Source: Candidatus Yanofskybacteria bacterium
Lineage (GTDB): Bacteria; Patescibacteriota; Minisyncoccia; 2-02-FULL-40-12; GWA2-44-9
Length of the DNA: 64,000 nt
Assembly: GCA_016181045.1 (NCBI GenBank)
Contig: JACPAB010000003.1
Coordinates: 7,652-71,651 of the forward strand
Reading direction: 5' to 3'
A program made the translations under genes and the position numbers. The first letter of the stretch is position 1. Every line of letters begins with the position of its first letter. The notes under the pieces are model-generated. The model was not told the DNA's origin. It made no database searches and was given only the letters and a program-made list of their open reading frames with translations. Positions 13,845 to 64,000 of this stretch are shown here, one piece after another.

Positions 13845-15008
13845 TTAATCCACTGCAATTTTTAAGGCATAGAGTTTGCCGTCTGTTTCGTTGAGTATTA
13901 TCAGAAAATTCTCGGTGCCGGTAAGCATCAGCTGTTTGGCGGATATATTTTTTGCCGGAGAGAACAGAAGCTCCTTTGTGCCATCCATATTTATTTTATA
14001 GATATCCTCGCCCCCCTGGCCGGACCGTCCGACGGCGCAGAAGATGTAGTCGCTGTTTATGCCCCAAGCGCATTTATAAGCGGGAGTAGAGATGTCCAGG
14101 GCCTTAACCGACGAAGACAAGGCGTCCCCGCCCGCCTGAGTGTCGTCAGGCAGTCGGGCGGGTTTTATGAAAAGCATCGGGCGGCCGCTTTCTCTTGTTG
14201 AATAAAGAATCTTTACGCCGCCGGAAGACCAAAGAACATCCACTTTCCCGGGTTCATCGACGAACTTAGTTAAATTCCCGGTCAGGGAGAGAAGATAAAC
14301 ACTATCCCTGCCATCCACCGAGGCCTTAAAAGATATGTATTCTTCCGATGGCCAGGAGAGCTTTATGTCCGCAAGGCGGGTATCGATGACCTTTCTCGGA
14401 GAACTGCCGTCGGGCGAGGAAACATAGATAGCGCCGTCAAGGCCCAGGGACCGAAGATACGCTATGTGCGAACCGTCCGGTGAGAACGCTAATGACCTTA
14501 TGGTTTTTCCAAGGCCCACAACCTTGTTTGTTTGGTAATTGTAATATCTGAAATCCTTGCCGTTGTTCGTGTCAAAAACACTCACCACCTCTTTTTTATT
14601 TGGGGACCAGAGCGTCTCGACAAGATTCGGAAGCGGTTTATCGGAGACGATCCTCTCGTTCATCCCGTACGAAACAGAAGCGCGCTGCGGGCCCTCGCGG
14701 TTTCGTTCGGGATTCATATCTCTCGGACCGGCCTCGAATACCCGGCCGTTGCTTTTGTCGTAATACAGGACGGAGGATTTTTCTTTTGAAAGAGTCGGAG
14801 ATAAAACCGCTCTCTTGCTTAAGGCAGACAGGTTTCCCGAAGAATTTTCGAGATCACTCGGCTGGCTTTCGTCGAATTTTTCCAGGAAGCCACCCCCGAT
14901 ATTAGCCGATTGCCTTGTGAAATCCTTTTGGCTTATCAAATATCCCGCTAAAAAAGCGGCCAACGACAAGGACAGAACAATTAGTACTATTAGAAATTTA
15001 TTATTCAT
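13845..15008 (-). CDS. Membrane-anchored TolB-like beta-propeller (PD40-repeat) protein
   Basis: N-terminal TM helix and PD40-like repeats (LAFSPDGSHIAYL, LWSPNKKEVV, LWSSGGVKILY). Confidence 0.6.
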   Translation of the reverse strand: MNNKFLIVLIVLSLSLAAFLAGYLISQKDFTRQSANIGGGFLEKFDESQPSDLENSSGNLSALSKRAVLSPTLSKEKSSVLYYDKSNGRVFEAGPRDMNPERNREGPQRASVSYGMNERIVSDKPLPNLVETLWSPNKKEVVSVFDTNNGKDFRYYNYQTNKVVGLGKTIRSLAFSPDGSHIAYLRSLGLDGAIYVSSPDGSSPRKVIDTRLADIKLSWPSEEYISFKASVDGRDSVYLLSLTGNLTKFVDEPGKVDVLWSSGGVKILYSTRESGRPMLFIKPARLPDDTQAGGDALSSSVKALDISTPAYKCAWGINSDYIFCAVGRSGQGGEDIYKINMDGTKELLFSPAKNISAKQLMLTGTENFLIILNETDGKLYALKIAVD

Positions 15009-15423
15009 TTATGTTTTCTTCTTCCGGCTGTTTCTTTGCCTGTATGCTCATTCCTCGATACATCCAGATAAGGGCCAATGTTCGGAAAGGAATGAATTCC
15101 AGCACCGAAGCCAGGATGGGGAAATTCTCCGCTACGAATCCGAGAGCAAACCGCTTCCACTGTTTGCGCGCGTTCTTGGACATGCCGACCCCTATAAGTA
15201 TGGCCACGTCTACCAGAAGTCCCAATGGTATGGCGATTATCGCTCCGACCCCAGTATAGACCGTTAATATTTCAATTATATCAACAAAAAGGGCAAAGAG
15301 TATCAGGATATAAGACCCGACACCCATTTTGTATGGCTCTGGCCGGCTTAATTCTTCCGGTTCTCGGCTTTCTATATTCCTCTGTGCTTCAAGTTCGTTG
15401 AAAACATCATTTTCATCTGCCAT
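15001..15423 (-). CDS. Hypothetical multi-TM membrane protein (T4SS-like cluster)
   Basis: 140 aa with 3-4 predicted hydrophobic helices. Its stop overlaps the downstream gene by 8 nt. Confidence 0.55.
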   Translation of the reverse strand: MADENDVFNELEAQRNIESREPEELSRPEPYKMGVGSYILILFALFVDIIEILTVYTGVGAIIAIPLGLLVDVAILIGVGMSKNARKQWKRFALGFVAENFPILASVLEFIPFRTLALIWMYRGMSIQAKKQPEEENINE

Positions 15424-15448
15424 ATTCTAATTCCTAATTTCCTAATAC

Positions 15449-17218
15449 CTAACTCCTAAGCTTTGCCCACTCTTCTTTGGCTTTCTCTATTTCCAAAAGT
15501 TGCTTCGGGTCGGAGGTAATTATCTGGTCTTCGGCGTAAGAGGCCACTACCCTGATACCGATATGGTTCTGGCCCAGGAAGAACAAACCGAAACCGACCC
15601 TTGCCTCAAGAAGATAATATTTTTCCGCATCGGTCAGGTTGAATGTTTGCTGGACTATGTCTATCGTCGAGGGGGACTGCTTCATCAGGACTTGAATGGA
15701 TGAGTTGGCAAGGACGCTTTTGCCCGCTTCGCTGGCGAGAAATACCGACACATCCTGTGAAATGGTTGTAAGTCCGGCGTAATATTTTCTGGCCCGGCGG
15801 GCAATGTTGGCGATAAAATCGGCGCCGATGGGATATTTCATAAGCCACCAGGCCTCATCGATCATTAGGAGCCGTTTTTTCAAAGTTCTGCGCATGGCGG
15901 TCCAGATATGATTGAGAACCAGATACATAGCGATAGGCCTTAACTCTTCTTCCATGTCCCTGATACTGAAAACAACCATTTGGTTATCCAACGCCACGTT
16001 GGTCGGCCTGTTCAAAAATCCGGCGAATGTTCCCTGGGTGTATTTGCGGAGCCGGATAGCCATTGATTCGGCGCCGGTAAGGCCTTCTAATACGTTTTGG
16101 AGGTCAGATAGCAACGGGGCGGACGCTTTTGAAAAATCCGATTCAGGAACGATGTCCTTTAGGGCATATGTTTGAATTAGGGCCTCGTCTAATATAGACA
16201 CCTCCTCCGGAGTTAACTCACCCAAGATAAGCCGGAGCAGTCCGGTTAAGCTCAATATGTGCGACTTGAATACGTCCGCCGGTGATTCGTCTGGTTTGGG
16301 CACGGGGAGATCGAAGGGGTTAATGTGCTGGTCGGAGTTTATCGATATCTTAACAGAGGTCCCCCCGATGGTGTCAGAAAGGTATTTGTATTCGTTCTCG
16401 GGGTCAATGATAAGAACCTGGGTGCCGAAAATTAAACTTCTCAATATTTCCAGTTTTACGGTATAACTTTTTCCTCCTCCGGATTTGCCAAACACGACTG
16501 CGTTGGCATTCTCCAAGTTGAACCGGTCGAACAAGACGAGGGAGTTATTGTGGGTGTTAATGCCGTAGAGGATCCCGGAATTTGATGTCAGGTCGAAGGA
16601 TACAAAAGGAAATATCGAAGAAAGCGGCTCGGTGTTCAAGGACGTGTGGACGTTGAGCTTGTCCTCATTTAGGGGAAGCGTTGAAGTGAATCCCTCGCCC
16701 ATTCTGAAAATGGCCGATTTGGGGAAAACAAGCTGGTATTCCAGAAGCCCTCTGACCTTATTTTCCGTCTCATCAAGTTCTTTCAAACTATTCTCGTAAT
16801 AAGTGATGTAAACCCCCAGTTCAAAGAACTTGTCGGTCCCCTGTTGGAGCTTGTCCCGGAGCAGTTCGATATCCTGCATCGCCGTCTCAAGCATCGGATC
16901 CCGGACCTTGCCTTTGGAGGCCTCTTCCATGGTTTGGGACTGGAGCCGGGCCAGCTGGTCGCGGAGTTGTTTTAAAACAGTAGCGGTATTTTTCGGCAAG
17001 ATGAATATCGAAATATCCAAAACCCGATCCAGGTTCAGGATCGGAGAGAACCAGTTCGTCTGCAGGTATCTCGGGAACGTCGCCAAAAAGATCGTTCGGG
17101 CAAACTTATTACCGACCTGCATGTAGTTTGGTGAGACGCTAAATGCTTCCGGAGCAAGAAGCTCGTCCATTTTCTTGACTGATGCGTCACCCAGTTGTAT
17201 ATCTTGTTTGTTCGCCAT
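15449..17218 (-). CDS. VirB4/TraC-family type IV secretion ATPase, C-terminal ATPase part
   Basis: Walker A GKSGGGKSYT, Walker B LLMIDEAWWL, and TISQDV motif. Confidence 0.85.
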   Translation of the reverse strand: MANKQDIQLGDASVKKMDELLAPEAFSVSPNYMQVGNKFARTIFLATFPRYLQTNWFSPILNLDRVLDISIFILPKNTATVLKQLRDQLARLQSQTMEEASKGKVRDPMLETAMQDIELLRDKLQQGTDKFFELGVYITYYENSLKELDETENKVRGLLEYQLVFPKSAIFRMGEGFTSTLPLNEDKLNVHTSLNTEPLSSIFPFVSFDLTSNSGILYGINTHNNSLVLFDRFNLENANAVVFGKSGGGKSYTVKLEILRSLIFGTQVLIIDPENEYKYLSDTIGGTSVKISINSDQHINPFDLPVPKPDESPADVFKSHILSLTGLLRLILGELTPEEVSILDEALIQTYALKDIVPESDFSKASAPLLSDLQNVLEGLTGAESMAIRLRKYTQGTFAGFLNRPTNVALDNQMVVFSIRDMEEELRPIAMYLVLNHIWTAMRRTLKKRLLMIDEAWWLMKYPIGADFIANIARRARKYYAGLTTISQDVSVFLASEAGKSVLANSSIQVLMKQSPSTIDIVQQTFNLTDAEKYYLLEARVGFGLFFLGQNHIGIRVVASYAEDQIITSDPKQLLEIEKAKEEWAKLRS

Positions 17219-17224
17219 ATGTCG

Positions 17225-17866
17225 TTAGTTGTCAGTCGTTGGTTGTAAGTTGATTTTAATGCCGGGATTATACAGACCGTAATAAAGATTCATCAGTTCG
17301 GTGCCTTCAAGGAGCCGGGTCTTAAGTCCCAGCCCGACCAAGCCGTCGAATACGAGCTCGACTCTTTGCAGGAGCTGGTTTTTGTATGTTTCGAGCTGTT
17401 CGGGTTTTATCTGTTTGATCACACCCGAAGGCTTGAGGATACTTTTTAAACTATCCACCAATCCTGTTTTTGACGGCGTCTCGAATACGTAAAAAGGAAC
17501 TACAATGTAGAATTTTTTGGACATGATATTGGACAGGTCTGCCAGTTCTTTGATGAACTTCGAATACTCGGCGGCCTGTATTTTTAGCAGCTCGCTTGTC
17601 AGCGATTCGGTAGTCGTCTCTATGAGTTTGAGATAGTCCTCGATATCGAGCCGCCTGGAATTCACCACGATTTGCAGGGGGAAATCGGTTGAATTCAGGA
17701 ATCTCTGGAAATTCTGCAGGATCGCGACCTGCTCCTCCTCCGATCTCAACTCGAAGTTTATCGACGAGACCTCTATTACCGTCCTCAAAGAGCCGTTCTT
17801 CAGAATAACGATGTTGTCGACTATGTCTGCTACCTCGACTAATTGTTTTGTGGATTGGTTAGCCAT
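17225..17866 (-). CDS. VirB4 N-terminal-domain-like protein encoded as a separate ORF
   Basis: IVILKNGSLRTVIEVSSINFELRSEEEQVAILQNFQRFLNSTDFPLQIVV resembles the N-terminal domain of Gram-positive VirB4 homologues. TAA stop lies 6 nt before the ATPase ORF. Confidence 0.55.
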   Translation of the reverse strand: MANQSTKQLVEVADIVDNIVILKNGSLRTVIEVSSINFELRSEEEQVAILQNFQRFLNSTDFPLQIVVNSRRLDIEDYLKLIETTTESLTSELLKIQAAEYSKFIKELADLSNIMSKKFYIVVPFYVFETPSKTGLVDSLKSILKPSGVIKQIKPEQLETYKNQLLQRVELVFDGLVGLGLKTRLLEGTELMNLYYGLYNPGIKINLQPTTDN

Positions 17867-18169
17867 CTACTTGTTCAATATGTTGGTTTGATCTTCTTTC
17901 TTAAATATATATTTTTTCGGATTTAGAATGTATGACAGACCATAAGATGCGTAAACCAATAGGGGGACCCCATCTACCCTTACGAATGCCATGGCTAAGA
18001 ATATCGCGGCAACAGGCAGGGCCAAAGCGATAAACAGAAAACCTTTCGTGAACATGAAAAGAAGAAAAAGTATTGCCGCTCCTCCGGCCACCCATAAAAA
18101 TTGCATGAGCGTGAACGGCCCGACAATTTTCACTTCCGTCTCGATAAATTGTGGAATTTGAAAGCGCAT
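17867..18169 (-). CDS. PrgI-family (VirB3-like) small membrane protein
   Basis: MRFQIPQFIETEVKIVGPFTLMQFLWVAGG followed by two TM helices. Start taken at ATG 18169. Confidence 0.7.
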   Translation of the reverse strand: MRFQIPQFIETEVKIVGPFTLMQFLWVAGGAAILFLLFMFTKGFLFIALALPVAAIFLAMAFVRVDGVPLLVYASYGLSYILNPKKYIFKKEDQTNILNK

Positions 18170-18245
18170 ATAACTTAAGTATATCAAATAAACCGCTAAA
18201 AATGGTGCCAGTAGTCAACAGGGTGTCAGATACAGGATACGGGGG

Positions 18246-18274
18246 TTGCAATACCGTTAGCCTTTTGATATATT
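18246..18274 (+). promoter_or_regulatory. Sigma70-like promoter of the TA pair (TTGCAA-17-TATATT)
   Basis: -35 at 18246-18251 and -10 at 18269-18274. The ATG at 18281 is only 6 nt after the -10. Confidence 0.45.
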
Positions 18275-18280
18275 TAACTT

Positions 18281-18496
18281 ATGAAAACTATTTCTATTCC
18301 AAAAACTATGGCAAAAGAAGAGTTGCTTCTCCTGACTCGCAAAGAATACGACCAGCTTTTGGATACTATAAGGAAAATAGAAAAAAAAGCAGAACTAGAC
18401 CCCGACTTACAAGAAGCAATCAAAGAAATTAAAAAGGGCAAACTTATAGGGCCGTTTACTTCTATTAAAGAATTGCGATTGTCTCTGGCAAAATGA
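18281..18496 (+). CDS. Putative type II antitoxin
   Basis: 71-aa ORF overlapping the toxin start by 4 nt (ATGA), which is typical TA architecture. Confidence 0.6.
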   Translation: MKTISIPKTMAKEELLLLTRKEYDQLLDTIRKIEKKAELDPDLQEAIKEIKKGKLIGPFTSIKELRLSLAK

Positions 18497-18738
18497 AAAT
18501 ATTTTATACTCCTAAATTCAAGAGGAGTTTTGATAATTTCCCAAAACATATTAGAGACACGTTCTATAAACAGACAACTCACTTACTAAAAAACATAAGG
18601 CACCCATCTCTTAAAGCCAAGAAATACAGTGAGAAGTTGGATATTTGGCAGGCAAGGATAGATAAGTCTGTCCGGCTTTACTTTTTGATTGAGAAAGACA
18701 GGTACATCTTGCTTGATATTAAAAAACATTCAAAGTAG
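18493..18738 (+). CDS. RelE/ParE-family type II toxin
   Basis: 81 aa with a C-terminal pattern IWQARIDKSVRLYFLIEKDRYILLDIKKH typical of the RelE/ParE fold. Confidence 0.7.
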   Translation: MKIFYTPKFKRSFDNFPKHIRDTFYKQTTHLLKNIRHPSLKAKKYSEKLDIWQARIDKSVRLYFLIEKDRYILLDIKKHSK

Positions 18739-18769
18739 CTCCACTTTTTTGGTTGATTGTGGGAGCGCC

Positions 18770-18882
18770 AGTGAACGGCCCGACAATTTTTACCTCGGTC
18801 TCGATAAATCCCGTACGAAGCAGAGACACGTTGCGGGTCCTCCGGCTTTGTTCGGGATGAATTGTGGGATTTGAAAACGCCT
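18770..18882 (-). pseudogene. Relic duplicate of the prgI 5' end
   Basis: About 60 nt match 18108-18169 (gtgaacggcccgacaatttt...tcgataaa...ttgtgg(a/g)atttgaaa). The start codon has become AGG and a 47-nt hairpin repeat (18810-18856) splits the copy. Confidence 0.7.
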
Positions 18883-18883
18883 T

Positions 18884-19438
18884 TTATTTTTGGTTTCTTA
18901 GGTCGACGACATTTCCGGGGCTGACCGGAGGTTCCTGGTTTCTTAGCGGGGGCGGGATATATTGAGGTGGGCCGGATCTTACGGGGGGTCTATATTGTTG
19001 GGGCGGCTCTAAAGATTTTTGAGGAGATAACCCTTTTTGCATATTTTTGAGATCCCCTATTACTGAAGCGAATAACTCGTTTACAATTTTACTCTGTATT
19101 TGATACGCAACCGCGGAGTCGATTCCCAAATTCTCGGAGATCTTGCCGGCCATCTCGTTTATCGAAATATCGCCAAGAAGGACGTCTCGGATTATTCGGG
19201 TCGCCTCTGCTTTCTGGTCTTTGTTCAGGCCGAAGCTTGGGCCCAAATTTTCTTCGATGAACTCTGCGGTCGAAGGATCCATCAAAATGTTCCTGACGGA
19301 CTCTGGCAGAGCGAGAACTCTGTTTGTATATTCTGTAAAGAAATTCTTGGGCTTGGAACCAAAAAGATCCACGTTGAATGGCGTTGCGTAACTTGAACCT
19401 TCTCCCATGCCTTCTTGTTCGTTTAGAATTTCGTCCAT
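18884..19438 (-). CDS. Hypothetical protein with a proline-rich C-terminus (T4SS-like cluster)
   Basis: 184-aa ORF with no recognisable motif. Called from position and coding-like composition. Confidence 0.5.
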   Translation of the reverse strand: MDEILNEQEGMGEGSSYATPFNVDLFGSKPKNFFTEYTNRVLALPESVRNILMDPSTAEFIEENLGPSFGLNKDQKAEATRIIRDVLLGDISINEMAGKISENLGIDSAVAYQIQSKIVNELFASVIGDLKNMQKGLSPQKSLEPPQQYRPPVRSGPPQYIPPPLRNQEPPVSPGNVVDLRNQK

Positions 19439-19454
19439 ATCAATTTACCGTCTG

Positions 19455-21590
19455 TTATAGTGGTGGCGTCGGCGTGGTTGGAGGAATCCTTCCTCCCGGC
19501 ATAGTTCCTGTGGTAGTAGGACTACTCAATATTTCAGTGTGCAAGATCTCGATCTTCCTGTCGCCACCAGGAGTGTCAAGCAATGTTCTTTCTAAACGCT
19601 GAACATAATTAGTTCTGGCCCGGCCCCTTAACTGTGAAATATAAAGTTTCAGGGCTTCTCTGAATTCAGGGCTGGTTTCCCAAGTATCCTTTTTAATATT
19701 GGCCGTGTCTTTCATGTCACCACTCTTTAGAAAACCGCCGAACATGTGAGTTTTTAATTGGAACTCGTTTGCCGGAGGAGCACCGTAGGCCTTATCAAAA
19801 CCTTCTTCCGCCTCTCTCCTAAGGTCTGGGTTGCGAGTTCTATCGGAATTATAACCTACAGCAAAGCTGGGATTTATCTTTCCCAGTTCTTTCAAAAAGT
19901 TCCGACCCTCTGCGGTGGTGTGTCCGCCAAAGACGCCTATCCCGGCCTCAATTTGATTGTCTTCCAGTCCCGACATCGCTTTCTTGTCGGTCAAAACGTA
20001 CCTGAACATTTCTCTTCGGGCAGCAACGGCACCCTTTAAGGAGCTGTAATCGTAACCAGGTCCGCTTTCAGCTGCAGCCATTCTTGCCAAATCCTTGCCT
20101 TTCATCTTTGAGAACTTTGCTTCTTTTGCTGTTTTGGCGAAGTCCTCGGCGGCTAATGGATTCTGGGATAATTGCGTCAAAGTTGAGGTGAATAGGTCGT
20201 TATCCAATTGGCCTATCTTTGCGGCTAACTTTCTATAAGCAAACCCTCTGGGGTCAGTAGAGCCCAACTGCTTGGCCCTTCGGACCACTTCAGCTTCATC
20301 TATCTTTCCGTTTTGATACTCTCTTTCAAAGTCCTGAAAGTTCTTACCGGCCAGGTCGACAAAAGCTTTTTGGGTTCTTACCTCCGCTCCCCTAACTCCG
20401 AATCTTTGGGCAAAGCGGCTGGTCTGCTGTTCCAGCCCGAACTTGCCGCCATAAAATATCCCCGCTTTTCCGGGCAGGCCTTCTTCCTTAATCTGTTCCA
20501 ATCTCTGTTTGGCAGCTGCCCCAGCCGCTGTTAACCATAATCTTCTTGCTGCCACGCCTCGCGACCACTTGGCTACAGTCACAACTCCGGTGCCGGAGAA
20601 CATTGATGCTTTCATTGCCGTGATCGTGCCTCCGATGAGAAATATGGCCGTCAGGACATAAAAGAATAAGAGCTGAAAACTGAACGGCAGATCGGAGGTG
20701 GGTTTGGCGCTGGACAGGTTCGCCGCTATCTTTTGAATAACGTCACCCTGGCTTTGAAGGAAATAAAGGCCGAAATACAGAAAGAAAAGAAATATCGGCA
20801 GGAACATATTCCAGCCGATAAATAAACTCCACCATTTTTTGTAAGTTCCCTGGCCAGCCGGAAATATGTTAAGCATCCAGGCCATCGGCGATACAACCAA
20901 CAACGCCCAGAGTATCGGAATTCTTATCATGGCGAAAATAAAAGCGGTCAATAAGCTGAAAAGGAATGTGAAAAGCAAGACCACGGAAAATAGCAAACTG
21001 ACAAGAGTACCGAAGACCACACTGTCGATCGCGACTCCGGTTGAGACATCCGATATACTGCCTGCTGCGGGCAGTAGCTTGGCGGGATTAAGTTCTTGTC
21101 CAAGGCGCAGGGACATGTCCCCGATTGATACCAGGAAAGTGTTTGTGAGCACCTGCGACGCGTCGATGACCAGAACTCCCAACACCAAGCTGAAGTTGAT
21201 GAGCAGGGCGGATATCAAGAATTTTGGGAACAGGGTTCTTGCCTCGTATTTGGTGATATTAAAGATAGTCGCGAAGGCCATGACTATCAATGCTACAATG
21301 AAGAACATGTTGGCGAAATTCCTCATTATCTTCCAACTCTCGTCCACTACCGGTATCCCGCCGTCAGGATAAACCGGGATATGGATGACCCAGTTCAGCG
21401 CAACGGCAAGTACGCCGATGACTTTTCCGACCAGAGTGAATATGACGAACAAGACATTGGCGAACACGGCCTCAAAAGCCCAATCGGTCAGCCAATTGGC
21501 TTTAGCTTCGTGGGTTGGTAGTAAAACCAAAGCAATCACGAAAATAATCGCTAAATAACATTTCCGGTATTTTTTAAAATTTCTTGACAT
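19455..21590 (-). CDS. TrbL/VirB6-like polytopic membrane protein with a long C-terminal soluble extension
   Basis: Signal/TM N-terminus, 6 or more TM helices over ~350 aa, then a ~350-aa hydrophilic tail. Start trimmed to MSRNFKKY (21590). Confidence 0.6.
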   Translation of the reverse strand: MSRNFKKYRKCYLAIIFVIALVLLPTHEAKANWLTDWAFEAVFANVLFVIFTLVGKVIGVLAVALNWVIHIPVYPDGGIPVVDESWKIMRNFANMFFIVALIVMAFATIFNITKYEARTLFPKFLISALLINFSLVLGVLVIDASQVLTNTFLVSIGDMSLRLGQELNPAKLLPAAGSISDVSTGVAIDSVVFGTLVSLLFSVVLLFTFLFSLLTAFIFAMIRIPILWALLVVSPMAWMLNIFPAGQGTYKKWWSLFIGWNMFLPIFLFFLYFGLYFLQSQGDVIQKIAANLSSAKPTSDLPFSFQLLFFYVLTAIFLIGGTITAMKASMFSGTGVVTVAKWSRGVAARRLWLTAAGAAAKQRLEQIKEEGLPGKAGIFYGGKFGLEQQTSRFAQRFGVRGAEVRTQKAFVDLAGKNFQDFEREYQNGKIDEAEVVRRAKQLGSTDPRGFAYRKLAAKIGQLDNDLFTSTLTQLSQNPLAAEDFAKTAKEAKFSKMKGKDLARMAAAESGPGYDYSSLKGAVAARREMFRYVLTDKKAMSGLEDNQIEAGIGVFGGHTTAEGRNFLKELGKINPSFAVGYNSDRTRNPDLRREAEEGFDKAYGAPPANEFQLKTHMFGGFLKSGDMKDTANIKKDTWETSPEFREALKLYISQLRGRARTNYVQRLERTLLDTPGGDRKIEILHTEILSSPTTTGTMPGGRIPPTTPTPPL

Positions 21591-21592
21591 TT

Positions 21593-23068
21593 TTACGGCT
21601 GAACCGGCGCTAACCACCGGGAAGTTTCTACTGAGCCGACTAAACTCCATGTTGGAGTTGCGGCGCCGTCCGAATCGATCAAAACGTCATAATGCAACCC
21701 GCTTGGTTTGTGGAAAAGTATGTCGCAAGAGACCGGGCCAGAAGCGAATGGGCAATTAGTTCCGCCGGGTTTGCTCAACAACCCCCAGCCATTGGAACTA
21801 TTTTTCCAGGCCACGGCGTTAAGAAAACTGGCCAATTGAGCCGGGGTCATCGGAGTGCCATAGTTTCCCCTTTCGGCTTGCACATCTGAAAGCAGAGAGC
21901 CCGGTTCTCCACCCGGTGGTGAGGGATTTGGTTCTGAAGGAGGCGGCTCTTCCACTGGATCTTCCGGATCCGGCAATCCACCATAGTTCCCTCCCTGATA
22001 CTCTCCCACTATTTCAATTGGAGCTTCTTTGTCGGGAGCCCTCAGGTCTTTTAAGCGGCTAACCAATCTCTCGCTTATGTCAACGAGTAGTTCATTCAGC
22101 TCATCAGAACTGACCACCCACTCAAGCTCTTTTTCTACTGTCGTCGAGACGGAGTCGCCTATCGTGCTTCCAGGGGTCTTAATGTCGTTGTAGATAAGGC
22201 ATTTTCCGTTCAGATCTCTTGTTTTGCAGGATGAGGCAGCATTTTTTCCGTCACCGCTTATGGATAAATATCCCCGTCCAGCCAGGGCTTGATTTAAGTC
22301 GGACGATTTTTCTATATTTCTTTGCTTGTTTGCTTCGTCTAAAGAACCAAACAGAGTTCCGTAATAATTATTTTGGGGCTCCAGTAATCTTGACCAGGCC
22401 TCCCAGCCCCCGTTCCCGGCAAAGTCGCTCTGGTAACTGGCCATATTAAAACTGGACGGCAAGGTGCAGTTGACACGCAAAGAAAACGGGTCTAAGCTTC
22501 CGGTTCGTGTATTCGCATCCTTCAATGACGTCTTGCCCCTAACCCCAAAAGTATTTTTAAGATCTTGTTCGAAATAGTCACACATCTTAGTATTTGACAG
22601 CTCTGCCCTGAATATATTCTCACCTCTGTATTCGGCATTGGTTTCAAAATTGCGCCAGTTTTTTATCCAGGTCTCTCCTCCATCTCTTCCGCCTTCTCTG
22701 ACTAAAGCCAAAACCCCGTTGACGCTTTTGTCAAAAATTCCCCTGGAGATGCATCTGGCCACCGGATCGTAAATGAATTCTTTCGCTGTATCTTGTGATG
22801 TTGCCGAATCTTCAACCTTATCCGGTGTACTACATCCAAACGCGCCGCCGGTAAAAAATGAGACAGCGGCGCAAGCAGCAGCTCTTATAACCGCTTTCAA
22901 GAATTTCCTGATTGCTTCGCCAATATCCCTCAAGATATTTCTCAAAGCATTTTTAATAGCGCACTTTGGGGCGCCTGCGATCTCACTCAAAGAAGCCATT
23001 GCAACATAAGGGAGAATAAGGCCGAGTATGATCAACAAGCAAACAGTTGTTTTAAAAGCATGGGTCAT
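21593..23068 (-). CDS. Secreted cysteine-rich protein of unknown function (T4SS-like cluster)
   Basis: N-terminal signal/TM, a proline-rich linker (EEPPPSEPNPSPPGGEPG), and a C-terminal ~100-aa domain. Confidence 0.55.
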   Translation of the reverse strand: MTHAFKTTVCLLIILGLILPYVAMASLSEIAGAPKCAIKNALRNILRDIGEAIRKFLKAVIRAAACAAVSFFTGGAFGCSTPDKVEDSATSQDTAKEFIYDPVARCISRGIFDKSVNGVLALVREGGRDGGETWIKNWRNFETNAEYRGENIFRAELSNTKMCDYFEQDLKNTFGVRGKTSLKDANTRTGSLDPFSLRVNCTLPSSFNMASYQSDFAGNGGWEAWSRLLEPQNNYYGTLFGSLDEANKQRNIEKSSDLNQALAGRGYLSISGDGKNAASSCKTRDLNGKCLIYNDIKTPGSTIGDSVSTTVEKELEWVVSSDELNELLVDISERLVSRLKDLRAPDKEAPIEIVGEYQGGNYGGLPDPEDPVEEPPPSEPNPSPPGGEPGSLLSDVQAERGNYGTPMTPAQLASFLNAVAWKNSSNGWGLLSKPGGTNCPFASGPVSCDILFHKPSGLHYDVLIDSDGAATPTWSLVGSVETSRWLAPVQP

Positions 23069-53421: not shown

Positions 53422-53612
53422 AAACATTCTCTCTGACATACCCGCAGGCAAGTCATGAAATGAAAGGCGGACAATAAAGAGTCCGAAATAATAGGTCGAG
53501 CGGTCGCCAAAGGCGACAGGCAAGTGCGGGTTACCTGTTATTTCGGGAACTCTTTCCAGACGCTCTTGAATTGAATGGCGAAGGCGAGGACCGGATGGAA
53601 GAGAGGATGTTT
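53422..53612 (+). ncRNA. Structured ~190-nt element, family copy C1
   Basis: Closing stem aaacattctctct / agagaggatgttt. Internal hairpin gtcgcc-aaa-ggcgac (53503-53517). Conserved blocks are shared with 57647-57867. RNA status is unproven. Confidence 0.5.
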
Positions 53613-57643: not shown

Positions 57644-57646
57644 ATA

Positions 57647-57867
57647 AAAGCGAAGCCCTAACACTTTTTACATCCAGTCCTCGCCTTCGTCACTCACCTT
57701 AAAACGTCTGTAAAGAGCATCTAAAATAACAGGTAACCCTCGCTTGCCTCCAAGCTAAAGCTTGGCGCTCGACCTATTATTTTAGGCCTCTTTATTGTCC
57801 GTCTTTCAGCTCATGACTCGCCTGCGGGTATGTAAAAAGCGTCATGGCCTTCGCTTTAAGTTAACAA
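57647..57867 (-). ncRNA. Structured ~220-nt element, family copy C2 (reverse orientation)
   Basis: Closing stems aaagcgaagcc / ggccttcgcttt and ctttttacat / atgtaaaaag. Internal hairpin ccaagc-taaa-gcttgg (57740-57755). Starts 4 nt after the comM stop. Confidence 0.5.
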
Positions 57868-58040
57868 AAAGCTCCCGGCCATATCCCTATCATTCAGCAC
57901 TCCTGGAGCGATACGGTAACATAAAGAGCATCCGAGATAGCAAAGAACAAATATAGCGAAGCGCTCTTGTTCTTTGCGTTAATGAGGATGCCCGCACAGG
58001 ATGTTCCGTGCGGAACACTTCGGTTGGCTCAGTGTCGGCA

Positions 58041-58412
58041 TTAGGCGTCTATGTTCTTGAAGTGCTTGATTTTGGCCACATGTCTGGCTTTATCCAGAGT
58101 TAGGGACAAGATGTCTATTTGCCATTCCTGGTCTGGGCCGCATCTTTTGTCGGTCAAGTATGTCCTGGCCGCTCTGACTATCCTTTTCAGCTTTTCCTTG
58201 TTCACTCTTAATTCCGGCTCAAACCCGGTTATTTCTTTGCTATTGGCTTTAACTTCAACAAAAACCAAAACTCCTTCTTTTTCGGCTATTACGTCTATTT
58301 CTCCCCACGGTTTTCTGTAATTTAAGGCCAAAATTGTATAATTTCTGGATTGCAGAAACTCGGAAGCGTATTTTTCCGCCAAGGCCCCAAATTCGGACGT
58401 CTTTGATTCCAT
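58041..58412 (-). CDS. yraN: YraN-family (UPF0102) endonuclease-like protein
   Basis: GEIDVIAEKEGVLVFVEVKAN motif, 123 aa. Confidence 0.8.
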   Translation of the reverse strand: MESKTSEFGALAEKYASEFLQSRNYTILALNYRKPWGEIDVIAEKEGVLVFVEVKANSKEITGFEPELRVNKEKLKRIVRAARTYLTDKRCGPDQEWQIDILSLTLDKARHVAKIKHFKNIDA

Positions 58413-58586
58413 GGGACATAATTTAGCACTAAAATTATAAAGTTAATATCAACAGTTACGAATTGACCCCGGGTTTCTAAAATGCTATCTTTACTTCTGT
58501 AATTCTCGCAAGAGGGTTTTTGCTTTTTAGGGAAGTTTTAATTACTAAAATCGATTAGTACTAAACTCAAAAATTTCATAGCGTCT

Positions 58587-59639
58587 TTGCGTGGGAAATT
58601 GATAATCCCGGAGAGCCGTTTTTCCAATTTCTACGGCGTTCTGCTCCTGGCCCTGTTTTTGATTGCTTTCAAGGGTGGTTCCGGAGAGGGCCAGTCCAGT
58701 TTGTTCAGCAATTTGATAAGGAAATACGTCGAAGAAACCTCCGCCTCCATAATCTCTTATACGTCGCACAATCAAGTGGCGGACCTGACCAGTTTGGCGG
58801 TTATGCAGGATATGGGTCAAGGTGGGGAGGATACTGATTTGGAACTGTCTACCATTCAAGACAGTTCTTTTTTGTCTAATAATCCGGTCACTATGGACTA
58901 TCTGGACTTCGGCTTCAAGCAGAACCAGATAGCCAAATATGAAGTTCAGCCGGGGGATGCGCTGTCTTTTATTGCCTCCGACTATGGCGTAAGCATCAAT
59001 TCCATTATTTGGGCCAATGGTTTGACTAAAGCGGACAACATCAGTCCGGGACAGATATTGAGAATACCTCCAGTTACCGGTGTTATTCACAAGATAAAGA
59101 AAGGTGATACCCTCGATTCCATTGCCAAGAAATATGGAGCTGAAAAAGAAAAAATAATTCAGTTCAACAGGCTTTCTGACAGCGGCATACTGGCGGTAGA
59201 TGACGAATTGGTGGTGCCTGATGGGAAAATGGCCTCTCCGGCCAATGTCCAGGCAACGACAGCTGCAAGATTCTCTCATTTGCCTGATCTGGGTGATTAT
59301 TTCCTTATTCCAACCACCGGCCGTAATTGGAGAAGAATTCACGGCAGGAACGGAGTAGATATTGCCAACTCATGCGGAACGCCGATATTTGCTTCTGCCG
59401 ACGGTTCTGCCGCCATAGTTGATGGGGTGGGATATAACGGGGGATTCGGTAAGTTCATAAAATTGATCCATTCCAACGGGACAGAAACGCTTTACGCTCA
59501 TGCAAGCAAACTGCTTATTACTTCAGGCCAACTTGTCCAGAGAGGCCAACAGATAGCTTTGATTGGAACAACCGGCCGCTCGACCGGTTGCCATTTACAT
59601 TTCGAAGTGCACGGCGCCAAAAATCCTCTATTGAAATAA
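58587..59639 (+). CDS. LysM-domain M23 metallopeptidase
   Basis: Two LysM repeats (YEVQPGDALSFIASDYGVS, HKIKKGDTLDSIAKKYG) and M23 motifs (GVDIA, GCHLHFEV). TTG start. Confidence 0.85.
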   Translation: MRGKLIIPESRFSNFYGVLLLALFLIAFKGGSGEGQSSLFSNLIRKYVEETSASIISYTSHNQVADLTSLAVMQDMGQGGEDTDLELSTIQDSSFLSNNPVTMDYLDFGFKQNQIAKYEVQPGDALSFIASDYGVSINSIIWANGLTKADNISPGQILRIPPVTGVIHKIKKGDTLDSIAKKYGAEKEKIIQFNRLSDSGILAVDDELVVPDGKMASPANVQATTAARFSHLPDLGDYFLIPTTGRNWRRIHGRNGVDIANSCGTPIFASADGSAAIVDGVGYNGGFGKFIKLIHSNGTETLYAHASKLLITSGQLVQRGQQIALIGTTGRSTGCHLHFEVHGAKNPLLK

Positions 59640-59906
59640 GTCGTTCCGCTCCCGCCAATCCCCACCCTCATCGCTCCGCCCCTCTTCGCTCGGCCGACAA
59701 TCCATCTCAGACACGCCTCCGGTCGCCCAGCGTGCGACCTCGGCCACATTCGCCACGGCTTTTCGAATCCGGTTCAGATCAATTATAACCGGATTCGCCA
59801 TGCGAAAAGCCGGGTCTCAAGTGTCTTCAATTGGATTGTCGGCCTGCGCTTAGTAAGGCGAGGTGGCAAACGGTCTAAAACAGGAAGGAGCTTTCGCTAA
59901 ACACTT

Positions 59907-60103
59907 AAAGCGAAAGCCCCTCTCCATTTGTAGACCGTCTGCGTCGAGGGTAACACAATGCTTGAATTAACTGATAATTTGCTTAGATAACAAATTTTAG
60001 CCGGAAAACCCGCCTAAGTTTTACAAAGTAAAATTTAGGCGGGGCAAACGGATGCTAAAATTTGTTAAGCAAATTGAAGTTTAATTCGAGCATTTGTCCG
60101 AAG
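59907..60103 (+). repeat. Left ~197-nt direct repeat bounding the island, containing a hairpin with ~45-nt arms
   Basis: Arms at 59957-60003 and 60050-60094. About 80% identical by eye to 62221-62399. Confidence 0.75.
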
Positions 60104-60140
60104 ATGACGAAGTCATAAGCAGTCACTGTCTCGTACGGGA

Positions 60141-60200: not shown

Positions 60201-60584
60201 ATGAAAAAGCTAATCGCTCTTTTTGTTTTTCTTTTCACGCTTGGTGCGGCTATCGATACGAAGGCCCAGACCGTGATCAGGCCTGACTATGTTCAGGTTC
60301 CAAATCAGGGCTATCCCACACACCCTGTTCTTGTGAGGAATGTCAGTCCATACGAACTGGAAGTCATTGTCAGATGGGCCGGCATGAAAACGGACTACCA
60401 TTTCGGTGTGGATGCCAAAAAAGACGCGGAAGTTATGCTTCCTTCGTATGTCCGGCTGAATGTCCGGGCTTGGGTCAGGGTCTACGACCAAAGGGGGAGA
60501 AAAAACTTGAAAGAGATGAAATTCCTTTGGTATTACGACGAAGCGTTGAAGAAAACGGTATTCTGGTTCCCGCGTTTCAAGTAG
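60201..60584 (+). CDS. Hypothetical secreted 127-aa protein
   Basis: Signal peptide MKKLIALFVFLFTLGAAIDTKA|QT and a strong SD. Confidence 0.6.
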   Translation: MKKLIALFVFLFTLGAAIDTKAQTVIRPDYVQVPNQGYPTHPVLVRNVSPYELEVIVRWAGMKTDYHFGVDAKKDAEVMLPSYVRLNVRAWVRVYDQRGRKNLKEMKFLWYYDEALKKTVFWFPRFK

Positions 60585-60723
60585 CCAAGGTTTTAAGCCA
60601 TTTTCCGAGCCCATTGCGGGCTCTTTACATTTAAACTAAATAGTGATATAATATAAGGTATAGTAGGTAAGTTTCTTTGACATGCAGTTTTTGTCCCGCC
60701 ATGGCGGGACTGGGAGGAGAGAG

Positions 60724-61476
60724 ATGAGACGATTCATTCGTGTCGTTGCCGTTGTTCTCGTTGGTTTTGCGGCTACCGGCTGCGCAACCGGCGGGTACTT
60801 GGGTCCCAAGCCCTATGGAGGGCCGCTGGGTGACGTCATGGCGGGGAATCTCGCGATAACGTGCCCGGGGGACTACTTCGTCGGAGGAGGCATCAACCGG
60901 TGTCTCCGCGATATCGGCGGGGATTTCGGCCGGTACTCGAACCATCCCATGTATCGCGGCGGGATGGGCGGGCCACAGCTTTCGCAAGCTGATAAGCTTT
61001 CCGTCTTCTGCGGTCTGGGCGGTTCCGCCGTGGCGATGTTGCTCGACGCGAGCGTCAAGAAGATCCTCGGCGCGGGGTTTTTATCCGCTGCCGTCTGTGA
61101 GGTAGCGGCGTCTGTCTCTAACCGAGGCAACAAACAGCCACAGGGCCAGCAGGTCCGTATCGCAAGCGACGGAACTCCCGTCGCTGTCGGCCGGCCTGTT
61201 ATCCCAGCAGCGCAGGGCTATCAGCCCATCGGCGACTCCGTTCCGTCCGATCCGAAGTGGTACATCCGCAACATGACCGGCGGGCGCGGAGAGCTCTGGA
61301 ACGGGAACCGGTTCATCAAGGTTCTCGAGCCGGGCGAGAGTTACGGCGTTTTAAACCCGAGCGGGGTCAAACTCGTCATCCTTGTTCCCACGAAAGAGGG
61401 GACACTGGAGCCCGCTGAAGCGCTTCGCAAGCCGCGCCGCGACGGCTGGGACATGGTGGTTCCCTCGGTCCAGTAA
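60724..61476 (+). CDS. Hypothetical lipoprotein (Gly/Cys-rich)
   Basis: MRRFIRVVAVVLVGFAATGC lipobox-type signal. SD GGAGGAG upstream of ATG 60724. Confidence 0.6.
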   Translation: MRRFIRVVAVVLVGFAATGCATGGYLGPKPYGGPLGDVMAGNLAITCPGDYFVGGGINRCLRDIGGDFGRYSNHPMYRGGMGGPQLSQADKLSVFCGLGGSAVAMLLDASVKKILGAGFLSAAVCEVAASVSNRGNKQPQGQQVRIASDGTPVAVGRPVIPAAQGYQPIGDSVPSDPKWYIRNMTGGRGELWNGNRFIKVLEPGESYGVLNPSGVKLVILVPTKEGTLEPAEALRKPRRDGWDMVVPSVQ

Positions 61477-61511
61477 CGAGGGGTGCCTCACTTCAAACAA
61501 GGAGAAAAGTC

Positions 61512-61997
61512 ATGGCACATGTAAGGTTCAACGGATATCGGGAATTCGTCTCGGACGAGGTTCTGTCGGTCGAAGAAGAGCGATGGGGACTTCACGGTCC
61601 CGCCCATACGCGGTGGGTCGAGAAGCACGTCTACTGGGTCCTTCCGGTAGGCACGCTGTTCCTGGTCGCTCTGCTCTTCCTCGTTTTCTTCTGGGGATTC
61701 GGGGGGAGCTTCAGGGCAGCGAGGGGCACGGCATTCACGCAGAGGACCGGCCAGGGCTGGATTCCCGTCCAGCCGGTACAGCCGATCCCGTCGCCGGCGG
61801 TATCCACTCCGCCGCCGCCCACGCAAGTGCCTGCCACGCCTCCACAAGTGACCGTGAACGTTCCGGACCGCATCCAGGTTAATGCGACTGTCCGGAACGT
61901 CACAGCGCCTCCGTCTGCTCCGGCTCCCAGCCGAGAGCTGACGCCGGAGGAGAAGGCGAATCAGTTCTGGGATCGCAGGCTCAATCGCGAGCCCTGA
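61512..61997 (+). CDS. Hypothetical single-TM protein with a proline-rich ectodomain
   Basis: TM helix VLPVGTLFLVALLFLVFFWGF. SD AAGGAG upstream. Overlapping ORFs in other frames are treated as GC artefacts. Confidence 0.55.
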   Translation: MAHVRFNGYREFVSDEVLSVEEERWGLHGPAHTRWVEKHVYWVLPVGTLFLVALLFLVFFWGFGGSFRAARGTAFTQRTGQGWIPVQPVQPIPSPAVSTPPPPTQVPATPPQVTVNVPDRIQVNATVRNVTAPPSAPAPSRELTPEEKANQFWDRRLNREP

Positions 61998-62055: not shown

Positions 62056-62220
62056 TCTTTGCGGCCACCTCGCTTTTTCGCGACGCCTTATCCCACGAGG
62101 AACCACGTCAAACCCTGTTGGGTTTGCGTTCTCTTTCGGTCCGGGGTGGCCTGTGAACGTTCCTCTTAGTGATAAGGCCGTCGCCTCAAAGCTAAACGGC
62201 TCACTTCTATGAGCCGTTTT

Positions 62221-62399
62221 AAAGCAAAGCCCATTCCCGTTTTAGACCGTTTGCCTCCGAGGGTAACATAATGATTAAATTAATAGATAATTTGCTTATT
62301 CAATAAATTTTAGCCGGAAAATCCTGAGTCTGCGAAGGAGGAACGGATGCTAAAATTTATTAAGCAACATTGAGAGTTAATTTAAGCATTTGTCCGAAG
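62221..62399 (+). repeat. Right ~179-nt direct repeat bounding the island, containing the hairpin
   Basis: Arms at 62270-62316 and 62345-62390. Lies directly upstream of tsaE. Confidence 0.75.
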
Positions 62400-62429
62400 G
62401 AGACCGAAGGCGCAGGCAACAGGTCGAAA

Positions 62430-62909
62430 ATGGTGATTTATCACTCCAACAGCCCAAAAGATACTCAAAGATTAGCAGCAAAAATTGCCAGGGAAACAGA
62501 ATCCGGTGTCATTCTTTTAGAAGGGGAGTTGGGCGCCGGCAAGACCACTTTTGTCCAGGCGTTCGCCAGAGCTTTAGGGGTCAAAGCCAAAGTAAAAAGC
62601 CCCACATTCAATATTATTAAAAAGTATAAAATCCCTTTTCGTTCTAATGGCTATTCGCTAATGGCTATTCGCTATTTGTATCACATTGATTGCTATCGCC
62701 TGAAAGACCACAAGGAAGCGATACCGCTGGGCATCCAGGATGTTTTTTCCGCCGCAGGCGGACCCGCCTCTGGCGGGAAAGCATCGCAGAGTGTTGTTCT
62801 TATTGAATGGCCGGAAAGAATAAGCAAAGTTTTACCCAAAAAACGTATTAGAGTGCATATTGATCATATAGATAAGAATAAACGTAAAATAACAATTTCT
62901 AATTTCTAA
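62430..62909 (+). CDS. tsaE: tRNA t6A37 biosynthesis ATPase TsaE (YjeE)
   Basis: GELGAGKTTFVQ P-loop, SPTF, HIDCYRL and LIEWPE motifs. ATG at 62430 is preferred because the upstream part of the tracked ORF lies in the repeat. Confidence 0.85.
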   Translation: MVIYHSNSPKDTQRLAAKIARETESGVILLEGELGAGKTTFVQAFARALGVKAKVKSPTFNIIKKYKIPFRSNGYSLMAIRYLYHIDCYRLKDHKEAIPLGIQDVFSAAGGPASGGKASQSVVLIEWPERISKVLPKKRIRVHIDHIDKNKRKITISNF

Positions 62910-62915
62910 TTACTA

Positions 62916-64000
62916 ATGACTAAAAAACTGATTCTTATTGATGGCCATGCGCTGGTTCACAGGGCGTTCCATGCCCTGCCGCTATCAATGAGCTCGCCCA
63001 ACGGCATTCCCACCAACGCGGTCTATGGCTTCGTTTCCGTCTTGATAAAAACCATCAAAGATTTGAGGCCGGATTATATTGTGGCCACTTTCGACCTAGC
63101 CGGTCCGACGTTCCGCCACGAGGAGTTCGCCGAATACAAAGCCCACCGGGAAAAGGCCCCGGACGACCTTCATGTCCAGGTGCCGCTGGTCAAAGAAATA
63201 CTGGGCGCATTCGGCATACCCATCTACGAGAAAGAGGGCTTTGAGGCCGATGACCTGATTGGTTCTATTGCCGAGATCACCAAGAAGCACAAAGATATCC
63301 AGACCATCATTGCCACCGGGGACCTGGACACCCTCCAGCTTGTTGAGAGCGACAAAGTCGTTGTGCGCACTCTCAAAAAGGGTGTTTCCGACACCATTTT
63401 ATATACACAAAAAGAAGTCGAGGAAAGATACGGCCTAGAACCCGGGCAGATGGTTGATTTCAAGGGTTTAAAAGGCGATCCGTCCGACAATATTCCCGGC
63501 GTTCCCGGAGTGGGGGAGAAGACGGCATCAGTCCTGATAAAGACCTTTAAATCTTTGGAGGGTCTTTATCAAGAAATTTCTAATTACCAATTTCTAATTT
63601 CTACAGAGATTCCCGGGCTAAAGCACCGTGAACCTTCTCCGAGCAAACAAATTCAAAATTCAAAATCTAAAAAAAATAAAACCCAAATCAAGCCGCCGCT
63701 TTCAGAAAAGTTAATTCAGAAATTGTTGGAAAATAAAGATGTGGCGTTTTTCTCAAAGAAATTAGCTACGATTATTAGAGATGTCCCGATTCAGTTCGAT
63801 ATTAAAAATGCCGAGTGGAGAAAGGGTATGAAAAAAGAGGAGCTTGTAAAAATGCTGCAGGACCTCGGCATATACAGTTTGCTTAAGAGAATAAACGAAC
63901 TGGATGGCGAAACTCCTGAACAGCCATCTTTGATGGCGGAAGCGACAGACGATATAAAAGTATCTTCCCTCGGTTCCCGTGAACAGGTCGGCAAGCTGAT
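62916..64000 (+). CDS. polA: DNA polymerase I, 5'-3' exonuclease region (partial, runs off the window)
   Basis: ORF absent from the track (no stop in window). MTKKLILIDGHALVHRAFHA..., FEADDLIG and GDPSDNIPGVPGVGEKTA (H3TH). Confidence 0.88.
   Translation, partial: MTKKLILIDGHALVHRAFHALPLSMSSPNGIPTNAVYGFVSVLIKTIKDLRPDYIVATFDLAGPTFRHEEFAEYKAHREKAPDDLHVQVPLVKEILGAFGIPIYEKEGFEADDLIGSIAEITKKHKDIQTIIATGDLDTLQLVESDKVVVRTLKKGVSDTILYTQKEVEERYGLEPGQMVDFKGLKGDPSDNIPGVPGVGEKTASVLIKTFKSLEGLYQEISNYQFLISTEIPGLKHREPSPSKQIQNSKSKKNKTQIKPPLSEKLIQKLLENKDVAFFSKKLATIIRDVPIQFDIKNAEWRKGMKKEELVKMLQDLGIYSLLKRINELDGETPEQPSLMAEATDDIKVSSLGSREQVGKL

Follow-up and report, generated by a model that had tools for sequence, protein, structure and literature searches.

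A dispersed family of hairpin-forming repeats in short intergenic spacers of Candidatus Yanofskybacteria

The window copies and their repeat family

The stretch of DNA analysed here (the window, 64,000 nt, whose positions serve as coordinates throughout) belongs to an organism placed in Candidatus Yanofskybacteria by relatives of its polA, the best matches having 70-76% identity. In these relatives, the conserved gene order is ComM, M23 peptidase, YraN, variable secreted-protein genes, TsaE and PolA, and it is in this region of the window that two copies of a long hairpin are found. An earlier note had described the hairpin and two compensatory substitutions between its copies, and had proposed selection on structure. 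Our analysis, in which L-numbers denote fetched comparison loci, makes it probable that the hairpin is the core of a non-coding, dispersed family of ~230-nt elements, similar to MITEs (miniature inverted-repeat transposable elements), which lie in short intergenic spacers of Candidatus Yanofskybacteria (Parcubacteria/Paceibacterota) and are kept for their structure, possibly with a terminator-like role. The features of both copies are as follows; R1 is a covariance model of the core.

59907..60121, + strand: family-A hairpin element, copy 1 (alignments and fold; R1 match 59938-60111, 157 bits), comprising the left terminus (59907-59948), the core hairpin (59949-60101) and a small side hairpin (60103-60120)
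59957..60003, + strand: copy-1 left arm, bearing a GAT bulge (repeats, fold)
60050..60094, + strand: copy-1 right arm (repeats, fold)
60009..60043, + strand: copy-1 apical hairpin allele CCCGCCTAAGTTTTAC / GTAAAATTTAGGCGGG (repeat search, alignment), also present in L033
62221..62432, + strand: family-A hairpin element, copy 2 (R1 match 62251-62407, 167 bits; nhmmer match 62223-62434; comparison with L077), comprising the left terminus (62221-62261), the core (62262-62397) and a side hairpin (~62399-62417)
62270..62316, + strand: copy-2 left arm (fold)
62345..62390, + strand: copy-2 right arm (fold)

Both a repeat search and the folds bore out the arms that the earlier note had placed in each copy. 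Copy 1 contains inverted repeats at 59957-59985/60066-60094 (29 nt, 79%) and 59988-60001/60054-60067 (14 nt, 100%), with an apical one at 60009-60024/60028-60043 (16 nt, 94%), and it shares three direct-repeat blocks with copy 2: 59945-60011 with 62258-62324 (85%), 60047-60072 with 62342-62367 (96%) and 60073-60108 with 62369-62404 (81%). When folded as RNA, the copy-1 region reached -110 kcal/mol (z = -12.1) and the copy-2 region -66.3 kcal/mol (z = -4.1); as DNA, copy 1 gave -43.6 on the + strand vs. -38.9 on the - strand, with z ~ -10 on either. Diagnostic patterns of 26 and 36 bases matched only these two sites in the window, with 0 matches expected from shuffles.

On the 52-pair model of the core, the two copies differ at 10 pairs: six double-sided changes that keep pairing, one wobble, and three pairs that are open in one of the copies. 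Both substitutions reported earlier are real: the change from G:C to A:T corresponds to model pair 38/223 (AU 53, GC 4, GU 4 and CG 1 in the family) and that from C:G to T:A to model pair 91/198 (CG 47, UA 14, UG 5). Likewise, the unpaired left-arm bases form a true bulge (GAT vs. TTC between the copies), at a position of variable length in the family where small palindromes are inserted in L017, L036 and L047. The apex does differ between the copies, as had been noted, copy 1 having a long hairpin of its own and copy 2 a short 4-bp closing stem (TCCT...AGGA) with an allele near those of L011 and L013; it is not simply a free loop, however, as ~8 alternative small hairpins are shuffled among the copies of the family.

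Both window copies are truncated. Copy 1 has no right terminus and departs from the family sequence past TAAGCA. In copy 2 the right terminus stops short at ...GGTCGAAAATG, where it abuts the GTG (62433) with which tsaE begins in the relative L077. The ATG at 62430, which would make tsaE longer by one codon, belongs to this cut-off terminus, the L077 start being the GTG that matches 62433.

In the alignments, pairing extends beyond the arms, first through GG..ACA.AATGC / GCATT.TGT.CC, then through TTTCG/CGAAG and finally through an outer stem of ~30 nt; the hairpin is therefore the core of a 215-260-nt element. Public metagenome contigs were scanned with a 22-base pattern, TTTTAGCCGG-N14-44-CGGATGCTAAAA, which retrieved 73 loci in ~40 gene contexts, every one from groundwater datasets, and the covariance model added five copies in Candidatus Yanofskybacteria genome loci fetched independently through polA. 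The neighbours at the 73 loci are housekeeping genes (prfB, ftsZ, recA, relA, parAB, lon, ribosomal proteins). One exact-pattern copy was found per ~150-350 kb of long contig, and pairs of elements 2-5 kb apart occur in the window, L028, L034, L047 and L084.

The conserved length across the aligned metagenome loci is ~225 nt. The hairpin base reads GGGTAACA...TTTGTCCGAAG and the element termini AAGCGAAACCCC...GGGGTT..., with inverted termini of ~30-35 nt (AAGCGAAACCCCGCCCATTTCAGACC / GGTCGGAAATGGGTGGGGTT...) that are common to families A and C; indeed, there are several families, which have inverted termini of ~35 nt in common and differ in their cores. At least three types of outer stem occur, covarying between the ends (CCCCGCCCATTTC/GAAATGGGTGGGG, GCCAGATATTTT/AAAATATCTGGC and GGCCTTAGTCATTTC/GAAATGATTAAGGCC), and the side hairpin on the 3' arm is optional. 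The internal loop GGAAAA / GGAAC, which is rich in purines, does not vary in the retrieved set and is missing from the diverged copies in L090 and L093. Hairpin modules of ~20-50 nt are nested in either arm and in either orientation, such as CTCGGAGTGGTTTCCTG...TGCTTTAGCC..., which L018, L019 and L046 carry in their right arm and whose reverse complement occupies the left arm of the copies in L029, L048 and L055. Since the same apex allele can be found with more than one outer stem, and even beside a core that has diverged, segments must have been exchanged between copies. Coding was ruled out because of 1-nt indels among copies within the sole ATG-initiated frame; a right-arm GGAGG resembling a Shine-Dalgarno sequence, together with an ATG, was rejected as a gene given these indels and an early stop in copy 2.

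Two further observations concern the ends and insertions. The last 5-6 bases of the right terminus take two forms (e.g., L004, L028 and L065 vs. L008, L033 and L046), of which GGGGTT-GAGCG is a direct repeat of the left-end GAGCG and GGGGTT-TCGCT its inverted complement. A perfect 20-nt palindrome, CCTGCCTGCCGGCAGGCAGG, was present at differing positions (bulge, left terminus, after the right arm) in copies from L015, L017/L036/L047 and L043, and looks like a separate tiny mobile palindrome.

Covariation and the strand that folds

The R1 model (156 positions, 52 pairs) gave 84 matches, 69 of them distinct. In these 69 copies, 97.0% of the cells at paired positions were paired, compared to 92.9% in shuffles, and 30/52 pairs showed double-sided change, compared to 9.8 +/- 1.8 in shuffles and 5-8 when partners were slid by 1-3 columns. 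There were 137 compensated cells, and 0/500 shuffles reached any of these measures. In an independent MAFFT alignment of 44 distinct copies, RNAalifold found 53 pairs, 14 with double-sided changes.

Copies located downstream of yraN (L090, L093 and L106) show how the fold fares in resident elements. Their mutual identity is 65-73% (flanks, 65-68%), they retain 44-50 of the 52 pairs, and each comparison between them revealed 7-13 double compensations vs. 1-2 breaks; their folds had z = -9 and -13.6, the same strand again being the better one. That these copies keep their pairing though diverged argues that the fold is retained in resident copies and not only in an active master copy. At the locus pairs with alignable flanks, core identity follows flank identity and is somewhat higher (core/flank: 0.79/0.66, 0.84/0.77 and 0.93/0.83). 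With homologues collected and covariation measured, the proposal of selection on structure is thus supported, breaks being far less frequent than compensations at the yraN site.

The two strands of the element are not equivalent. For 48 distinct full elements, RNAfold gave a mean of -92.3 kcal/mol for the + strand vs. -79.1 kcal/mol for the complement, the + strand being lower in 47/48, and R1 scores were 80-167 bits on the + strand vs. 17-45 bits on the - strand. Among non-majority pair states, G:U accounted for 81 cells vs. 33 for A:C (~2.5 to 1), and one-sided changes mostly led to G:U on the + strand, e.g., at pair 43/218 (AU 45 / GU 18). Because the + strand pairs better and G:U exceeds A:C, the constraint acts on a folded single strand. 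The earlier note had left a choice between RNA and single-stranded or cruciform DNA; what stands of it is a folding + single strand, beyond a double-stranded palindrome, while G:T is tolerated in DNA too, so that sequence alone cannot separate RNA from single-stranded DNA (ssDNA).

Position at gene ends, mobility and alternative explanations

The element is oriented with respect to its neighbours. The right-hand gene is convergent at 38/57 loci, and a convergent stop codon lies <= ~20 nt from the 3' end of the element at 19-25 of 56 distinct loci, the mirror case occurring at three. Two other repeat families in the window (B and C, listed below) follow the same rule, the 3' end of the better-folding strand abutting a stop codon. 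The flanks contain 44% A upstream and 42% T downstream, clean U-runs are uncommon and the basal stem is GC-rich.

A long hairpin, GC-rich at its base, against stop codons in a near-spacerless genome would most plausibly be a terminator/insulator or a 3'-end hairpin. In the mechanism we favour, the element would spread, rarely, by means of an enzyme acting in trans, and once resident it would be retained if its folded single strand, most likely RNA, is useful or at least harmless at gene ends. There, where native spacers measure only 6-40 nt, it may function as a bidirectional terminator or insulator, or as a hairpin that protects 3' ends.

Features of MITEs are present, namely terminal inverted repeats, a non-coding length of 215-260 nt, and dispersed copies that occupy some orthologous sites and are absent from others; as a true MITE family it is a candidate and not a proven case. 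The comparisons of filled and empty sites were made between species. For copy 2, the interval from the conserved terminator after the 161-aa gene to the tsaE GTG measures 41 nt in L077, where the site is empty, vs. 368 nt in the window, where the spacer consists of another hairpin plus copy 2. The copies downstream of yraN in L090, L093 and L106 are missing in ~15 relatives, L080-L089 having empty sites, and yraN differs in its final codon and its stop at the filled sites. Between ComM and M23, the spacer measures from 6 nt to ~1.4 kb, with a copy in L084 and empty sites in L085 and L095. Exact-protein look-ups for strain-level empty sites returned no record for tsaE (two start choices) or for the 161-aa protein, and found the 127-aa protein encoded nearby only on short Logan contigs ending at the hairpin apex. 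Three independent Logan contigs (L001-L003) each start 160 nt upstream of the 127-aa gene, at the copy-1 apex; assemblies break at these sites because of the hairpin repeat.

The L077 tsaE spacer of 41 nt has a promoter-like TTGAAA-N17-TACTAT. As the window lacks such a spacer, its tsaE would have to be transcribed from or through the repeat.

Several points weigh against this interpretation of a MITE-like element kept for its structure. As regards mobility, all-against-all clustering of 446 open reading frames (ORFs) from the 73 metagenome loci yielded housekeeping families only, with no transposase, integrase or reverse transcriptase recurring; the 1.8 Mb of DNA that was fetched held no left/right terminus pair 0.6-3 kb apart, as an autonomous element would have; and no locus-specific target-site duplication was found, the AGCG/GAGCG at both ends of many copies being the same at all loci. 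As regards structure, the retrieval of most copies by an exact 22-base pattern makes the sequence look more conserved than it is, the structure of the model was used to fit alignment A4, and the shuffle control is not a probability because the copies share descent. Further, apex shuffling suggests gene conversion between copies, which could keep both sequence and pairing without structural selection and is the main alternative to selection for the in-place retention of the fold. As regards function, the U-tract is weak and terminator activity a guess; the folding strand is antisense to both neighbours at 18 loci (-,-), compared to 10 with the (+,+) arrangement. Since the well-paired strand is so often antisense to both neighbours, simple co-transcription as a 3'-UTR fails to explain it, which leaves some probability for an ssDNA role or an independent transcript.

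Other results bear on mobility as well. A Pfam scan of ~40 window proteins found no transposase or reverse transcriptase. The window encodes a single tyrosine recombinase, which is Xer-like (246 bits for XerC, and 135 bits for integron integrase vs. a cut-off of 265). The terminal AGCG/GAGCG mismatches do not co-vary within a copy, and TTCGCT, the other form of the terminus, is genuinely an inverted complement.

A more far-reaching version of the structural interpretation, which we regard as doubtful, is that the elements are not selfish passengers and constitute a vertically maintained, lineage-wide structured RNA/ssDNA module that punctuates transcription at gene ends in ultra-compact genomes of candidate phyla and moves without classical transposase or target duplication. 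Such a module could be, for example, a portable bidirectional terminator/insulator or a mobile non-coding RNA gene with a protein partner.

It is unlikely, in our judgement, that the element is instead a substrate for ssDNA transposition or recombination, with pairing in the active strand and no RNA role, whether by HUH/Y1 enzymes (as in REPIN-RAYT or IS200/IS605) or by a tyrosine recombinase (as in attC). Strand-specific pairing would fit ssDNA equally well, given that G:T is tolerated and that the + strand folds slightly better as DNA too; the bulged bases and variable apex resemble the anatomy of attC, in many cases transcription from the neighbours does not yield the folding strand, and the elements cluster head-to-head or adjacent to one another, like REPs in BIMEs. 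However, no Y1/HUH transposase or integron integrase was seen and no recombinase recurs in the 73 loci; RYYYAAC/GTTRRRY sites, the GTAG/CGTC tag and cassette arrays are also lacking. Moreover, old resident copies should not be selected for transposition, and yet those at the yraN site keep their pairing.

Rather more unlikely is a multi-copy, stand-alone non-coding RNA gene with its own + strand promoter, acting in trans or as a cis-antisense RNA to the 3' end of the convergent gene. Such a gene would be expected to show the covariation and the one-stranded G:U asymmetry, the internal loop invariant in the retrieved set, the orientation toward convergent gene ends and the in-place conservation. 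Against it, no conserved promoter lies upstream of the left terminus, and the sole promoter-like match, GTAACA-17-GATAAT (9/12), is inside the left arm and would yield a transcript devoid of that arm. Neither the lack of the internal-loop motif in L090 and L093 nor the absence of an Rfam match favours this possibility, and the occurrence in ~40 contexts, with truncated copies such as both of those in the window, is atypical of an essential RNA gene.

We consider it very improbable that structural selection is absent altogether and that the family is a young palindromic repeat with a palindromic ancestor, its asymmetry arising from the master copy, strand-biased mutation or gene conversion. Two G:U positions are indeed majority states inherited by most copies, apex shuffling indicates recombination among copies, and retrieval was biased to conserved ones. 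These points contrast with the 30 pairs that carry independent double-sided changes (5-8 in slid controls), with the 44-50 of 52 pairs kept by the yraN-site copies at 65-73% identity, and with an asymmetry that tracks the orientation of the element itself in every gene context.

Finally, the two copies could be attL/attR-type junctions of an acquired GC-rich three-gene island, as they stand in direct orientation 2.3 kb apart around genes of 63% GC, but this is scarcely credible: the copies differ in subfamily, termini, side hairpins and apex alleles, GC-rich DNA flanks copy 1 on both sides, no integrase was found, and the same element occurs at dozens of unrelated loci, including L028, with a like pair around a permease and an MgtC-like gene. 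In addition, two of the three island genes have homologues in the same place upstream of tsaE in L077 (74% and 69% identity), L078, L082, L086 and L087, and the GC-rich genes are therefore a resident variable region and not a recent, repeat-bounded island. The island framing of the earlier note hence fails, and the window copies are independent members of different subfamilies, not a duplication from insertion of the intervening genes.

Known repeat systems and other features of the window

A number of known identities were tried and rejected. Integron attC sites or clusters of attC sites lacking integron integrases (CALIN) do not apply, as the RYYYAAC/GTTRRRY core sites are lacking at the hairpin base, with no GTTRRRY on either strand, there are no cassette arrays and the recombinase is Xer-like. 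A REP/REPIN origin was discarded because the consensus has no GTAG/CGTC tag or doublet and no Y1 transposase occurs among the locus ORFs and scanned window proteins, and a palindrome-associated transposable element (PATE) derived from IS200/IS605 because the two ends are inverted complements of each other, all of the element forming a single hairpin. Regarding known RNA families, Rfam 15 at the gathering threshold returned only tRNAs (window and 15 loci), and at E <= 10 only generic microRNA-precursor hairpins, far under their thresholds. Phage or plasmid origin was rejected as well, with no blastn match in phage or plasmid collections and two empty pattern scans of viral contigs.

MITEs fold into long RNA stem-loops, frequently at gene 3' ends (PMC3184786). 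Among them, ERIC and Correia (NEMIS) elements resemble the present family in being non-coding and 100-250 bp long, with inverted termini, a whole-element stem-loop and intergenic dispersal, and also in their frequent location at gene 3' ends and in size variants produced by internal insertions (PMC3184786). The present family departs from them in that neither a TA or other locus-specific duplication nor a cognate transposase was found; its copies are few, it resides in a candidate-phylum bacterium whose genome is very small, and it keeps its pairing in vertically inherited copies. Another small interspersed repeat, bcr1 of the Bacillus cereus group, is regarded as mobile and likewise keeps its secondary structure through compensatory base changes (PMC3184786); it is ~155 bp long, with two independent stem-loops and 5-bp terminal direct repeats, and has been shown to be transcribed, whereas the present element is a single ~230-nt hairpin in which no variable direct repeats were seen. 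SPRITEs show a similar bias toward the ends of convergent genes (PMC3184786), but they are ~105 bp long with a recognisable terminator motif, compared to a stem >100 bp and a weak U-tract (T 42% in 12 nt) here.

REP/BIME and REPIN-RAYT systems are also extragenic palindromes, forming mosaic clusters in spacers near stop codons, and are thought to move as single-stranded hairpins; REPs, however, are 20-40 nt long and bear a GTAG/CGTC tag, and REPINs are doublets, whereas neither tag, doublet nor RAYT gene was seen here in the locus ORFs and window proteins. With attC sites the family shares an imperfect hairpin with extrahelical bases, a variable terminal structure and one strand recognised by structure rather than sequence, but not the R''/R' core sites, the cassette array or the integron integrase, and its copies are scattered among housekeeping genes.

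The usual picture of Candidate Phyla Radiation genomes is that they are streamlined and contain little mobile DNA, and no description of dispersed structured repeats in these bacteria was found in the searchable literature. The elements are a new family of a known class, the small bacterial hairpin-forming interspersed repeats, and the first of that class to be noted in a candidate-phylum lineage. In the window, several hairpin families occupy spacers whose length in relatives is only 6-40 nt, and one element has replaced the native region upstream of tsaE. The family amounts to a clean natural experiment in how structure is conserved, given its numerous compensatory changes and its strand-specific pairing; should its members be terminators or insulators, it would bear on how transcription is punctuated in these genomes.

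Apart from the two copies of family A, the window contains the following hairpins.

59645..59897, - strand: family C, a GC-rich long hairpin head-to-head with copy 1 (folds at -122.1 kcal/mol on the - strand vs. -105.2 on the + strand; inverted repeat I1)
57644..57870, - strand: family B hairpin, with termini like those of family A and an unrelated core (folds at -90.3 kcal/mol on the - strand vs. -63.5 on the + strand)
53436..53600, - strand: second family-B copy (78% identity over 171 nt to 57668-57833)
62072..62192, + strand: GC-rich hairpin filling the spacer upstream of copy 2 (z = -5.65), not present in the empty site of L077

The minus-strand 5' end of family C (59862-59897) is a left terminus of the family-A type, and its minus-strand 3' end abuts the M23 stop codon (59639); this head-to-head arrangement with a terminus of the same type accounts both for inverted repeat I1 and for an additional hairpin immediately upstream of copy 1. 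The family-B hairpin at 57644-57870 abuts the ComM stop codon (57643) with its 3' end and has BLAST copies in L035, L024 and L062.

The M23 peptidase-YraN block (58041-59639) is inverted, reading ComM+, YraN-, M23+ in the window vs. ComM+, M23-, YraN+ in ~20 relatives (L080-L106), and hairpin elements occupy the spacers at both breakpoints. Between the two family-A copies, 60201-61997 encodes three small predicted secreted/membrane proteins (127, 250 and 161 aa) at 60-65% GC vs. 45% for the genome. None has a Pfam match; the last two are positionally conserved in relatives, and the first was found in identical Logan contigs and nowhere else.

Coding sequences contain, internally or at their ends, short direct repeats that are AT-rich (AATTTCTAATTTCTAATTAC and variants), at 62894-62922, 63575-63604, 58533-58548, 58621-58634 and 62639-62667. 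The peptides encoded by them are ISNF* at the end of tsaE, EISNYQFLISTE inside polA and FSNFY in the M23 peptidase, and the repeats may be small in-frame insertions.

Elsewhere in the window, a block of minus-strand genes (13845-23068), mostly without Pfam match, surrounds a TraG/VirB4-like P-loop ATPase (15449-17218) and may encode machinery for secretion or DNA transfer. Near ~4.3 kb and ~44 kb, gene orientation and GC skew switch together, with dnaA (10068-11441) and dnaN (8690-9781) on the minus strand; the skew seems to follow the direction of transcription rather than to mark an origin.

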